Below, piece by piece: positions 30,781-38,058 of a stretch of 64,000 nucleotides of DNA. The position numbers and the translations under genes are program-made. Location of the stretch: sequence record CP113993.1. One strand, given 5' to 3'. The notes beneath the pieces were generated by a model that saw only the letters and a program-made list of their open reading frames with translations, was not told the origin of the DNA and searched no databases. Source of the stretch: a plasmid. Position 1 is the first letter of the stretch, and each line of letters starts with the position of its first letter.

Positions 30781-31539
30781 TCAGAAGTTTTCTATAAATT
30801 CATTAATTGATACAGGTCGCCCAAAAACATAACCCTGGAGATAATGGATACCAACGTCTTTTAAATAGTCAGCTTGCTCGAATGTCTCAACGCCTTCTGC
30901 TATAAATTTTAATTTTAATTTCCTTCCTAGGGATATTATATTACTGATAATAAATTCCGTATTTTCATCAATGCCAATCTTGTGTACAAATATCTGGTCA
31001 ATTTTAATGAAATCCACAGGGAACTGCTGCAGATATACATAAGATGAATATCCCGTTCCAAAATCGTCGAGAGATATTTTTATACCATGGGCTCGCAATC
31101 TCTTTATGTTTTCTTCTTCATTCTTACTATAGAGCACTTTTTCTCTTTCTGTAATTTCCAGAATAAGAATCATTTTCTTTTCAGGAAATCCGTTCATAAA
31201 ATTGATACATTTGCTTATAAAAGCACTATTGTTTAAAAGGCCGGGATTAATGTTAATAGCAATGTGGAATTTATAACATATTTTCTTATTAATGAATAAA
31301 GGTAACATTTTATCCATAATGTCTTCCAGTAAATCACACGTCATTCTGATAATAAGACCAGTGCACTCTGCTTCCTGAAGAAATTTTTCTGGTGTCAGAA
31401 TTTCCTTATCACTTTTCCTCCATCGCATTAATACCTCCCCACCAATAAGCCGTTCCGTTTCAGCATCAACAACAGGTTGTATATAGGGTATAAACTGTTT
31501 TTCCATTATCCCCTGCAAGATATTTACTTGAGAGTTCAT
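30781..31539 (-). CDS. Stand-alone EAL-domain protein (predicted c-di-GMP phosphodiesterase)
   Basis: EIT(E)R in the EAL position, DDFGTGYSS, EGVETFEQ and QGYVFGRP motifs. 252 aa with no GGDEF or sensor domain. Lies directly downstream of the autotransporter on the same strand. Confidence 0.8.
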   Translation of the reverse strand: MNSQVNILQGIMEKQFIPYIQPVVDAETERLIGGEVLMRWRKSDKEILTPEKFLQEAECTGLIIRMTCDLLEDIMDKMLPLFINKKICYKFHIAININPGLLNNSAFISKCINFMNGFPEKKMILILEITEREKVLYSKNEEENIKRLRAHGIKISLDDFGTGYSSYVYLQQFPVDFIKIDQIFVHKIGIDENTEFIISNIISLGRKLKLKFIAEGVETFEQADYLKDVGIHYLQGYVFGRPVSINEFIENF

Positions 31540-31655
31540 AATTCAACCTTATCATTAAACATACCGTTCATTATCTGTTAAAAATGATTATAGACGCCTC
31601 CTGTACATTTAGTCCGCATACGTACAGGAGGCGACTAATTTAATGAAATCGTCAG

Positions 31656-34600
31656 TTAGAAACTGTAACGAATTCCAATATTAAAATCTTGTCCATCAAA
31701 GCCAAAACCATTAATTCTTTGATAAGACGAGAGTTCACCATACAGCGAAAGATCTGGACTTAACATTCCACTGGCTCCGATTACAGTATTAAATTTCCCA
31801 CCATTTTTCCCTGTTTTAAAACTGACCCCTTCAATTTTCACATTTTTCGAATTACTGAAATCATTAATAACATCCGCTCTGAAATACGGCTTCCAGCTTT
31901 CTGTACCAGGCACAAGATAAGACAATTTAAATCCTGCTCGTCCTATAATTGGATGTTGGTTATTGATGTCCACACTAAGATCATTATCATCAACAACCTT
32001 ATTTATATATAAGTTTCTGGATATAAGCTGAACTTGTGGCTCAATTTCTAATGAGTTAACAAGATCAAACCTCTTACCAAACTCTATAGATAAATCAAAA
32101 CTATCAGCTTTAACCCGAGAAATTTTTTCTCGATTATTGTAGATATGTCCATTATATAGCCCATATGATAACACTCCGTCAATATAATAATCATTTACAT
32201 TAATTAGCGTACCAGTCAACGAAAAAGTATTGGCATTGACAACCATATAACTGGATTCTTGACTGGAATTTGTAACGTTAGTTCTACTGTCTCCAAATGT
32301 ATAATTCGCTCCTAAAAATACCTTATTATTACCATAATCAAATGCCGTCCAGTTTGTACCTATAGACATGGCATTATTTTTTTGCTTAAAATCATATCCA
32401 TAGTTATCTAAATCCAGATTACTTTTGTAACTGTCTGAACTCGTAATAAATCTATAATAGAAATCAAAATCTTTGATCTGCTTATTATTATTTTTAGAAT
32501 AAATATCCCCCAGTCGGCGATCTATATTGTCCAGAACAAAGTTACTGTAATTGCTAAGTGCTGCTGGTAAACTTAAATATGAGCTTGCTTGCCTGACTAT
32601 GAGCGGGCGTGATTTCCTCTCCCCCGTATTTCCATTCCCTGTACCATTCCCTGTACCATTTCCTGTACCATTTCCTGTACCATTTCCTGTACCATTTCCT
32701 GTACCATTTCCTGTACCATTTCCTGTACCATTTCCTGTACCATTTCCCGTACCATTTCCATTCCCTGTACCATTATCATTCCCTGTGCCATTACCGTTTT
32801 CATTGTTTGAATTATTATAATCAGGATCAACTCCTGGCACCACATTTCCAGAGCTATCCAGATATGCGGTTTGTAGTCTAAAATCTACATTTACAGGCTT
32901 ATCCCCCAGAAAATTACTTTGTTGATCGACCTGATCGCCTCTATATGTAAAAAGCCTGTACTGATAAGGGCTTTTAGTCCCGGTGGATATATACTCACGA
33001 TCTAACTTAAATGCATTATCTGCTGCATCGCCCCCAACCTGAACTAAAGAAATACCATCCCTGCTGCTAAAAATATTACCAGGAGCAGATGCTGTATTAT
33101 CTCCGTTACCTTGCGGAACTACTTTGAGTACAGTTTCACCAGAGACATTACCCTTAATAAGAACTTTATCACTGAGCTGCTGATCTTTATCTCCGCCCTT
33201 ATTCAGAACAGTATTTAAAGTTATAGTACCATTTCCTCCACTATAATCACCTTTAATATTTAAGTTATTAAATTCACTTTTATTAAGTGGTGAAAAAATA
33301 ATATTCCCGCTATTTCTAACATTGTCAACATCTGTACGTTGAGATATCACCCAATTACTGGAGTTATTCATCAGGTTTAAGTTAATAGTAGATTCGTCAG
33401 ATTTATGCATGTTACTGGCTAACGTCGTATTGTCGCCTGCATTGATATTAAGAATACTATTCTTACCCTCAACAAGAATTGGCATATCGGTGTACTGATT
33501 TCTTAACGACAAAGTTGATTGAACATTGTCAGACAATCTCATACCATTGCCTGAGGATTTAATACTTACATTGTCCAGATTTATCGTACTATCCCCAGTG
33601 ATATAGATTAAATCATTTTTTGCAGAAACGTCCCCTCCAATTATGTTTAATACGCCATTATTAACATTCAACAAGGCATCTTGCTTTTCCGAGTTCATAT
33701 TCAAATTGATAAGTGTTAATGCGCCATTCATTAAACTTATCTCACTTGCATCACCGCCATTCCTAACAATCAACTCACCCTCTCCACTCTTGGTAAATTT
33801 GTAATCCCCGGTGTGAATTTTATTCCAAGAAGAACTCATGTCCTTATCGACAGAGATGTCACCATCAGCATTAAAATATACATCCCTGTCTGATGCAAAT
33901 GAACCAAATATTTTTAGCCCTCCTCCATTCATTATTAAGTCAGAATTGTTTTTATTCCCCCCCCCGAGACTTTGGTCTGAATTAATCCGCAGATTCCCCT
34001 GATCAATCCGAGTGATTCCCTGGTATGAATTAATACCATCCAAAGTCATATCACCTTGTCCTTTCTTTATTAAAGAACCGTTACCACTAATTTCACCGGA
34101 AAAAACAGAGTCGGCCAGGCTGTTCACTGTCAGGAGCCGGTCACCGAGCACAACGTGGCTTCCTTCGTCACCCGTAAGATTGTTTACCATGGTGCCGTTG
34201 GTCGTCGCACTGATGTCTAACGTTGCATCCCTGTTAAGTCTGACATTTCCGCTTTTCTCAATGTTACTGTCACCAGACAGGGACAATTTACCGGCAGAAA
34301 CAGTTGTGTCGCCCGTGTAATTGTTCTGGCCTGCCAGTGTGAATGAGGCCGCCCCTGTCTTTAGCAGGCCTCCTGTTTCACCTTCAGCGCCGAATTCACC
34401 GGAAAAAACAGAGTCGGCCAGGCTGTTCACTGTCAGGAACCGGTCACCGAGCACAACGTGGCTTCCTTCGTCACCCGTAAGATTGTTTACCATGGTGCCG
34501 TTGGTCGTCGCACTGATGTCTAACGTTGCATCCCTGTTAAGTCTGACATTTCCGCTTTTCTCAATGTTACTGTCACCAGACAGGGACAATTTACCGGCAG

Positions 34601-37001: not shown

Positions 37002-37080
37002 AATAAGTCACTCAGTTTTACTGGGTTAATTTTTACAAAAGCCTCATTTTCCAAATAACAATATATTGTTATTTGACAAC

Positions 37081-37560
37081 TCAACTCATTTCATGAATCA
37101 TAGCAACAAGCTTCATCGACTTAAGTGATGAATCAGGCTCATTAATTACTGACAATATTCTTTCATCATAAGAATTGACAGTATTACCTTCCATAATTTC
37201 AACATAACCTTCCATAACATCAACATTTTCAACCCCCAATTTAAAACAAGCAGCAATAATGTTTTCCATGACTGAATCACGTATAATTGCCGGTCCATTA
37301 CCGAACCTGACAAAGCAAATAACCCCTTCACAACATTCAACTTTATGAAATAAATTACCAGAGCTATCAAAACATAAAAACATATAACCTGGAAATAAAG
37401 GCTGTGATATCGCTCTCATCGTGTTGTTTCTGTCTTTTCTCATTTGTTTTCTGTGAAGCAAAGGATAAAACGTAATCACCCCCATACTCTCCAGTTTTTC
37501 TTTGGCCTTTAAGGCTTTACCTTTTCCTGGTTTAAGTAAAACCAGATACCATGTCTTCAT
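37081..37560 (-). CDS. RfaH/NusG-family specialised transcription antiterminator paralog (159 aa)
   Basis: MKTWYLVLLKPGKGKALKAKEKLESMGVITFYPLL...SQPLFPGYMFLCFD...FVRFGNGPAIIRDSV aligns with RfaH MQSWYLLYCKRGQ...SEPLFPNYLFVEFD...FVRFGASPAIV. It lies 79 bp upstream of the autotransporter on the same strand. Confidence 0.8.
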   Translation of the reverse strand: MKTWYLVLLKPGKGKALKAKEKLESMGVITFYPLLHRKQMRKDRNNTMRAISQPLFPGYMFLCFDSSGNLFHKVECCEGVICFVRFGNGPAIIRDSVMENIIAACFKLGVENVDVMEGYVEIMEGNTVNSYDERILSVINEPDSSLKSMKLVAMIHEMS

Positions 37561-38058
37561 ATAGACCTCTTGCTTCTATAATTAATTTGAAATAGACAGT
37601 GTCTTTTTTAAAGCAACAGTTCAGAAAAACAAAACAGCTTAAATCAAGTCGGAATAAGAGGTAAAAACCTTACTGAACACGTAGATAGTCATGCTGTTTC
37701 AGAATAGCTCCGCCCTGACGAAACCCGCCAACAAGATTATTCATTTTTTACATGACAGGAAATTAAAAACTTATATTAAAAAACACAGATTCTGGTTGTT
37801 ATCATTTGAGAAAACCATAATATCACATGACATAAGATCAGGGTCAGGCCCTCGTCTTCATCAGCCGATGTTACAGATAATAAAAAAACTGCTCATGGAA
37901 ATGCAAGTACATAACCAATCCTGCAACCCGGATAACTACACAGTAAACTCAAAAATATATTGAACAGGGTAGCTCCATGTCAGAATACCAGTGCCGGATG
38001 ACGACTTTTACTGCCCTATAATCTGGTCGGTAATCACCGTAAATAAAAACAGGTTTCA

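Follow-up and report, generated by a model that had tools for sequence, protein, structure and literature searches.

The stretch of plasmid DNA analysed here (sequence record CP113993.1; 64,000 nucleotides, hereafter the window) carries on its minus strand a locus that probably works by processive antitermination, as a paralog-specific module of the PrfaH/UpxY type in which the factor is encoded in cis, at the head of the transcription unit that it would act on. The window is part of the Salmonella Infantis megaplasmid pESI; the region matched about 130 Salmonella enterica plasmids of 130–340 kb at 99% identity or more, most of them pESI-type megaplasmids of serovar Infantis. Read along the minus strand, the locus consists of a gene for a 120-amino-acid (aa) hypothetical protein (hyp120), a GrlA-like regulator gene, a 498-bp leader, the gene for an RfaH-like NusG paralog, a 79-bp spacer, the autotransporter gene peaP, a 116-bp spacer, a gene for a stand-alone EAL protein and an IS3 element. 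The open reading frame (ORF) coordinates, the strand, the two short spacers and the sequence motifs of the original prediction were all recovered when the ORF list was rechecked. That prediction had also considered the arrangement undescribed, but a preprint of May 2026 noted that an RfaH homolog gene and an EAL gene, "potentially co-transcribed", flank peaP (PMC13228587), so the arrangement can no longer be called undescribed. The layout itself is of a known kind; what is new is the cargo, a single giant autotransporter and an EAL enzyme, together with a putative GrlA-like initiator.

The paralog gene (37081–37560, minus strand) is preceded by a strong Shine-Dalgarno sequence, AAGAGG, at 37566–37571, and encodes 159 aa in the intact allele carried by the window. 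Residues 2–101 of the product matched the Pfam NusG NGN domain (E=1.4e-13; 51.6 bits against a cut-off of 22.2), and residues 1–156 aligned end to end with residues 1–147 of E. coli RfaH (E=7e-13). In the HMMER alignment, residues 104–156 were paired with RfaH 99–147, including EPDSSLKSMKLV with EPDGEARSMLLL, and a C-terminal EPDxxxxSM segment was shared. RfaH models were the top NCBIfam matches, yet they scored below their equivalog cut-offs (NF006534 and TIGR01955; 72.4 bits against 124, and 67.3 against 144.5), indicating that the protein is a paralog and not RfaH itself; matches to UpxY (45 bits, cut-off 100) and LoaP (30 bits, cut-off 125) were weak. An AlphaFold model built from a 101-sequence alignment had a predicted local distance difference test score (pLDDT) of 85.8 and a predicted template modelling score of 0.82, and showed an NGN domain with a helical C-terminal hairpin packed on it (helices 132–139 and 144–158, pLDDT 85–92); a shallow-alignment model (pLDDT 46) was discarded. 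The best full-length Foldseek matches to the model were autoinhibited RfaH (5OND, 8PFG and 2OUG) and plasmid PrfaH (9IK0), and its NGN domain matched that of recruited RfaH (8PEN) with a root-mean-square deviation of 1.8 Å. The paralog is predicted from this model to adopt the autoinhibited RfaH-like fold. The assignment to the NusG/RfaH family, first made from a few conserved segments, was thus borne out by the NGN domain, by a C-terminal region homologous to the RfaH KOW region and by the RfaH-like model.

The paralog departs from RfaH at positions that matter for recognition of the ops element. When the ops-contact residues of RfaH were located in the alignments, K10 was found to be kept, whereas R16 is replaced by K, H20 by K22, T72 by C77 and R73 by E78; such replacement of the ops-reading residues is what an altered loading site would lead one to expect. 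In addition, the autoinhibition residue E48 of RfaH corresponds to Q53, and the C-terminal domain is about 12 residues shorter than that of RfaH.

A candidate for such a site lies in the leader. The bipartite motif GGGTTTCGTCAGGGCGGAGC, which can be written GGG-N9-GGCGGAGC, occupies 37707–37726 on the minus strand; its octamer GGCGGAGC is on the sense strand at 37707–37714, exactly where the original prediction had placed it, and the longer 12-mer GGCGGAGCTATT (37703–37714) lies 154 nt upstream of the paralog start codon. An alignment of eight allele leaders contained one outstanding conserved block: the 30-nt segment 37733–37704, the most conserved of its length and containing GGCGGG-TTTCGTCAG-GGCGGAGC, showed 97.8% identity among six divergent alleles, while the leader averaged 78.7%. 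The bipartite motif occurred once in the window and once in a complete 322-kb pESI, where it lies in the paralog leader. The bare octamer was rejected as a specific marker at the scale of that plasmid, with 17 sites against about 11 expected.

Removing the flipped-out T from canonical ops GCGGTAGC gives the motif core, GCGGAGC, and the bipartite motif as a whole resembles canonical ops GGCGGTAGC lacking that T. The window contained no exact canonical ops site and one-mismatch matches were at chance level; the leader gave no Rfam match to JUMPstart. The octamer had been described as at best a divergent ops; its case is stronger than that wording allowed, as the octamer proved to be the core of a clade-wide bipartite motif. 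We found no paper reporting this motif. The d(GCGNAGC) mini-hairpin is known from nucleic-acid chemistry, and the GCGGAGC core fits it. The upstream half of the motif (37716–37730, TGGCGGGTTTCGTCA) is predicted to form a small DNA hairpin of its own, and the leader RNA was no more stable in structure than shuffled sequence (z = +0.49).

Searching orthologous leaders for an ops-like element, as had been suggested, extended the motif well beyond pESI: the block was conserved in the Salmonella alleles, and in seven of nine distant relatives of the paralog (27–44% identity) GGG-N8-9-GGCGGAGC was present on the sense strand of the paralog's own leader. In these seven it lay 63–368 nt upstream of the paralog start and was usually the sole such site in 8–16 kb; the chance of finding even the octamer alone in a 400-nt leader is 0.0005–0.006. 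The expectation that specialised paralogs sit beside long operons also held, the nearest relatives heading operons for surface structures or toxins. These were type IVb pilus operons on IncI-type plasmids in Serratia, Afp-like contractile injection systems (Enterobacter, Aeromonas, Burkholderia and a metagenome), an Aeromonas chaperone-usher fimbrial operon and Tc-toxin-like genes in Yokenella. On a Yersinia ruckeri plasmid, a homologous NusG-like gene stood at the end of the stretch analysed, which covered its upstream side only. More distant paralogs linked to type IV secretion systems had other leader motifs.

Two copies of GGG-N8-9-GGCGGAGC were observed in the Yokenella regensburgei sequence (L036), at about 1687 and 5622. 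One is in the paralog leader before the Tc-toxin-like genes; the other precedes a holin/holin/lysozyme cassette and is likely a second target site, which suggests a small regulon with a release system.

Linkage of the paralog to an autotransporter was equally consistent. Diverged paralog alleles (79–95% aa identity) were present on other Salmonella plasmids, namely IncFIB plasmids of 130–416 kb and an IncC plasmid, and on contigs of subspecies salamae and houtenae. Every paralog allele found (79–100% aa identity), including that of pESI, had a peaP homolog directly downstream, and none was unlinked from an autotransporter gene; the hyp120 and GrlA-like genes lay upstream wherever the contig reached far enough. 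In an exhaustive search of 1.84 billion representative proteins, the paralog subfamily formed a single cluster at 50% identity. The databases searched, these proteins included, held no relatives between about 42–44% and 79–80% identity, and a scan of species-representative genomes for intermediates outside Salmonella returned only a 31%-identical Alkalilimnicola relative. Apparently diverged alleles (59–65%) in the pESI records H40 and H42 were discarded as artefacts: these assemblies are error-rich, and many of their genes are broken up.

The ratio of nonsynonymous to synonymous substitution rates (dN/dS) of the paralog, the highest in the module, was 0.15–0.45, with one pair at 0.77, indicating purifying selection on both domains. 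Elsewhere in the module, dN/dS was lowest for the GrlA-like gene (0.04–0.16), followed by peaP (0.13–0.21) and hyp120 (0.14–0.31). Non-pESI paralog alleles were intact at 159–163 aa, with one exception: in S. houtenae the product has 178 aa and departs from the others beyond residue 142.

The first gene of the proposed cargo, peaP (31656–37001, minus strand; 5346 bp), encodes a 1781-aa monomeric autotransporter adhesin. The protein contains PATR (E=8.7e-25) and AC_1 autochaperone (E=1.7e-19) domains by Pfam and a beta-barrel by PGAP annotation, and is a type Va monomeric autotransporter. Its name comes from PMC13228587, where it was shown by experiment to be displayed on the surface as an abundant adhesin and to be needed for CsgD-independent biofilm at 37–42 °C, motility interference and chicken colonisation. 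In the same work, deletion of fur, ompR or lrp had no effect on peaP, and its regulation was left open. The gene has a weak Shine-Dalgarno sequence and two internal repeat arrays (303 bp × 3.4 at 34092–35123 and 12 bp × 10.7 at 32632–32759). It had been described as a 5.3-kb AT-rich gene; this is true of the 3' 2.4 kb (35–37% GC) but not of the first 2.9 kb, the Gly-rich 5' part (48–51% GC). We found no paper in the S. Infantis transcriptome literature that mentions the locus. Homologs of peaP (84–98% aa identity) were observed on non-pESI plasmids and in subspecies salamae and houtenae (L013, L014, L016, L021 and contigs L002–L019), which contradicts the statement in PMC13228587 that PeaP is limited to pESI-harbouring strains; draft contigs with such homologs nearly always break within the 303-bp repeats.

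The last gene (30781–31539, minus strand) encodes a 252-aa stand-alone EAL protein (Pfam EAL, E=3.4e-58). Among proteins of solved structure it is nearest to YahA/PdeL of E. coli, an active enzyme (E=2.3e-57), and all of the catalytic and metal-binding motifs are kept (EVLMRW, ININ, LEITER, LDDFGTGYS, IKID, AEGVET and LQGY), so that it is predicted to be a catalytically competent cyclic di-GMP (c-di-GMP) phosphodiesterase. The EAL gene followed peaP at the same 116-bp spacing in pESI, pSAbAus, pRM11065-2, the Macclesfield plasmid and an IncC plasmid, and indeed wherever the 3' end was visible, with the exception of S. houtenae. The spacer contains a hairpin with a 14-bp stem followed by TCTATAATCATTTTT (31593–31635, minus strand); the spacer RNA folds at −37.7 kcal/mol (z = −4.7), and four alleles retain the hairpin, whereas it has decayed in S. 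houtenae. A scan for intrinsic-terminator-like sites on the minus strand, which was limited to loops of 3–8 nt and therefore missed this hairpin, found none in the leader or in the paralog-peaP spacer. The hairpin could terminate transcription in part, in which case an antiterminator would override it; it could also stabilise a 3' end or belong to the edge of a separate promoter. Inclusion of the EAL gene in one unit with peaP, as originally predicted, is favoured by their adjacency in most alleles, but the gene is replaced in S. houtenae and separated from peaP by the hairpin.

At the other end of the module, the regulator gene (38059–38496, minus strand; 145 aa) encodes a CaiF/GrlA-family protein (Pfam CaiF_GrlA, E=1.1e-24; GrlA structure 4KT5_C, E=3.4e-15 over residues 11–123) that is 92–100% identical in aa sequence across all alleles; both its domain and its place upstream of the paralog, as a member of the conserved module, were confirmed. 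The hyp120 gene (38625–38987, minus strand) is the first of the module and is syntenic in all alleles (87–100% aa identity). Its product had no Pfam, NCBIfam or PDB sequence match, and a role as a GrlR-like antagonist, judged on sequence alone, was without support. Between the GrlA-like gene and the paralog, the top minus-strand sigma-70-like site was CTGACA-18 nt-TATATT at 37954–37983, a consensus match only, with 10 of 12 positions. A conserved TGAATAAT box lies at 37736–37743, just upstream of the motif. In pSAbAus (L013), a 70-bp deletion between two TCATGT repeats (equivalent to about 37745–37815) lies directly upstream of this box and leaves the motif intact; this deletion could help locate the promoter.

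From these elements we propose the following sequence of events. The GrlA-like regulator would activate a promoter within the ~500-bp leader, and transcription of the leader would expose GGG-N9-GGCGGAGC on the non-template strand, where the GCGGAGC core could fold into a GNA-triloop mini-hairpin. The paralog, autoinhibited by its helical C-terminal hairpin, would be recruited at the motif, open, and stay on RNA polymerase instead of NusG. The polymerase modified in this way would resist pausing, Rho and H-NS-type silencing, and would read through the paralog gene, the repeat-containing 5.3-kb peaP with its AT-rich 3' half, and the hairpin into the EAL gene. The EAL enzyme would then lower c-di-GMP during PeaP synthesis, so that PeaP adhesion would be uncoupled from the c-di-GMP/CsgD biofilm programme.

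Several observations weigh against this antitermination model, and they can be set beside the alternatives that they favour. The paralog contains two G5 tracts, at codons 26–28 (37479–37483, minus strand) and codons 108–110 (37233–37237, minus strand). The second was G4 in about 67 of about 115 complete pESI-type plasmids, giving a 137-aa product with an intact NGN domain and an out-of-frame tail in place of the native C-terminal domain; the first was G4 in about 40 of them, giving a stop after 27 aa, and a 132-aa restart product of this lesion occurred on at least 1000 contigs. One or other lesion was thus present in about 95% of the complete plasmids, a handful, the window included, being intact. 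All three protein products were common in draft genomes (at least 1000 contigs each), so that the intact allele, rare among complete plasmids, was common among drafts; because the lesion products also occur in Illumina drafts, the lesions are not long-read artefacts. Plasmids of both lesion classes keep peaP and the EAL gene intact. It can therefore not be taken for granted that the autotransporter depends on the paralog, and the prevalence of the frameshifts indicates that an intact paralog is dispensable for the success of the plasmid and perhaps for PeaP expression. In addition, the paralog evolves faster than the neighbouring genes, and PeaP is reported to be highly expressed in strain 119944 (CP047882; PMC13228587), which may carry any of the three paralog alleles. 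On these grounds the paralog could be a decaying or dispensable passenger in pESI, with peaP driven by promoters under GrlA-like or host control, and the lack of effect of the fur, ompR and lrp deletions on the strongly expressed PeaP has been counted in favour of this explanation too. We nevertheless consider it unlikely: dN/dS is well below 1 in both domains across alleles whose dS is about 0.4, the non-pESI alleles are intact apart from the altered end in S. houtenae, and the leader motif is the best-conserved non-coding sequence of the locus. Furthermore, by analogy, the NGN-only allele could still be active. Removal of the C-terminal domain of E. coli RfaH relieves autoinhibition, and for this reason the 137-aa allele could even be constitutively active; Belogurov et al. 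reportedly found in 2007 that the isolated N-terminal domain of E. coli RfaH is active without ops. Two readings follow: the factor is dispensable in pESI, or epidemic lineages lost or decapitated it through selection or hitch-hiking. A further explanation, in which the G5 tracts are a slipped-strand switch whose reversible frameshifts tune PeaP, and with it adhesion versus motility, appears highly improbable. In its favour, each lesion shortens a homopolymer tract from G5 to G4, both tracts lie in one 480-bp gene, and all three states are abundant; however, five bases are short for a phase-variable tract, and the states look lineage-associated, as in CP092298.1, a plasmid carrying blaCTX-M-65 that has the codon-108 lesion.

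The motif and the EAL gene call for similar scrutiny. As a transcribed loading site the motif is putative. Counting against it are the absence of the exact motif from two clade members (L024 and L034), the presence of AGCGGAGC in three Salmonella alleles and the failure of ViennaRNA with DNA parameters to predict a hairpin for the octamer, although the standard DNA energy model does not capture the GNA-triloop mini-hairpin. GGG-N9-GGCGGAGC might instead be a promoter element or a regulator-binding site, for example for the GrlA-like protein. Its position directly downstream of the conserved TGAATAAT box and the small DNA hairpin in its upstream half, which is a feature of many operator-like repeats, would suit such a role. 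We regard this as very unlikely, since the motif tracks the paralog clade across genera whether the neighbouring regulator is FaeA-like, GrlA-like or absent, invariably occupies the sense strand ahead of the paralog, and gives way to other leader motifs in more distant paralog clades, the pattern of factor-specific ops-like sites as in PrfaH. It is somewhat unlikely, on the other hand, that the EAL gene is transcribed independently, as a neighbour functionally unconnected with peaP and the paralog. The strong hairpin and a perfect TATAAT box ahead of the EAL gene argue for independence, as does S. houtenae, in which the EAL gene is lacking and a different 233-aa ORF starts at the same position; the constant 116-bp spacing on the five plasmids named above argues against it, and EAL genes are known to close other adhesin operons. 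Set against these alternatives, the antitermination module remains the explanation that we favour.

A wider reading joins these threads, and we offer it tentatively, as possible but on balance doubtful. GGG-N9-GGCGGAGC would be a new "T-less ops" class that forms a GNA-triloop mini-hairpin and is read by a plasmid- and island-borne paralog clade through the CPG/CEG residues that replace T72-R73, licensing type IVb pili, fimbriae, contractile injection systems, Tc toxins and PeaP. Epidemic pESI lineages would have independently broken or decapitated their paralog by G5-to-G4 slips, with the NGN-only allele perhaps constitutive, and so rewired adhesin and c-di-GMP control during global poultry spread.

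Comparison with known systems shows which features are shared. PrfaH/ActX of IncX plasmids (9IK0; PMC11880322) is likewise a plasmid-borne RfaH-like paralog heading its target operon, with an RfaH-like fold and a helical C-terminal region; it binds a paralog-specific non-template-strand hairpin in the 5' untranslated region of its own gene, which shares a transcript with the virB target (PMC11880322). It differs in its low identity to the PeaP-linked paralog (about 19%), in its cargo, which is virB type IV secretion and not an adhesin, and in its site, TCGGGGTCATCCGAG at −42 to −25 as opposed to GGG-N9-GGCGGAGC at −166 to −147; moreover, the function of PrfaH is proven, whereas that of the PeaP-linked paralog is predicted only. 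The RfaH of E. coli and Salmonella shares with the paralog the NGN domain, the C-terminal EPDxxxxSM segment and, as predicted here, the autoinhibited alpha-hairpin, and its leaders resemble that of the PeaP locus in having a GGCGG-containing element and in being long and upstream of a horizontally acquired surface-protein gene. However, the ops sequence GGCGGTAGnnTG is absent from the PeaP leader, the paralog lacks the last ~12 residues of RfaH and has other residues in place of H20, T72 and R73, and RfaH acts in trans on many operons whereas the paralog is encoded in cis with its target.

The paralogs of IncI-type pil operons and of Afp-like systems, the latter presumably those called AnfA1-type, are the nearest relatives (27–44% identity) and share the same indels, the short C-terminus, the head-of-operon position and GGG-N9-GGCGGAGC. 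They differ in their multi-gene pilus, injection, fimbrial or toxin cargo, in having a FaeA/PapI-like partner or none instead of a GrlA-like one, and in the distance of the motif from the start codon (63–81 nt, compared with 147–166 nt at the PeaP locus). UpxY of Bacteroides and LoaP of Bacillus are also specialised NusG paralogs encoded at or beside a long operon and acting through its leader, but they are distant in sequence from the PeaP-linked paralog and serve capsule and polyketide cargoes, and LoaP recognises RNA. For the distal gene, the parallel is with the EAL genes that end adhesin loci, such as mrkJ after mrkABCDF in Klebsiella and genes of the sfaY/papY type. In these loci too, adhesin genes are closely followed by a stand-alone EAL gene, suggesting that adhesin expression is coupled locally to c-di-GMP turnover, but they are fimbrial operons of the chaperone-usher type and have no NusG paralog. 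The PeaP module showed no c-di-GMP receptor, whether of the PilZ type or other.

A redundant close paralog on pESI was ruled out, the only other NusG-like gene being a distant one, about 25% identical, at the pil genes. In CP092298.1 this gene (180814–181290) lies upstream of pil-like genes, and its leader carries a near-variant of the motif, GGATCGGTTTTGCGCGGAGC, raising the question of cross-talk or site discrimination between the two pESI paralogs. The same plasmid has one perfect canonical ops, GGCGGTAGCGTG, at position 8068. It lies in an AT-rich leader, about 200 nt ahead of ORFs that resemble prepilin peptidase and type IV pilin genes, and is likely a target of chromosomal RfaH.

Around the module, the IS3-family element adjoining the EAL gene matched, at 30066–30202 (plus strand), Rfam isrN at 71.7 bits, which exceeds the gathering score, and, weakly, the IS1222 frameshift element; both matches probably reflect the IS3 frameshift region. 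On the other side, the ~3.4 kb at 39040–42400, between the module and a set of exporter genes, has 34–46% GC and few long ORFs, and no genes are annotated there in the RefSeq-derived table. The exporter block (42497–48111, minus strand) contains HlyD-type and C39-peptidase ABC exporter genes, a bacteriocin/microcin-type export set, near a second CaiF/GrlA-family gene (47686–48111) that is followed by a 239-aa ORF. Several plasmids carry this block in synteny with the PeaP module.

PeaP has been reported to drive high-temperature biofilm and chicken colonisation in epidemic multidrug-resistant S. Infantis (PMC13228587). The analysis offers a candidate circuit for the control of peaP: a putative GrlA-like activator, an RfaH-like factor, an EAL enzyme and, in the leader, an element of 20 nt. 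Frameshifts in the elongation factor distinguish the main pESI lineages and could explain or predict lineage differences in adhesion and persistence. Beyond pESI, the clade-wide motif would be a second natural example, after PrfaH, of loading-site diversification among RfaH-like paralogs, and the matched protein and DNA changes in this clade may be used for biochemical study.

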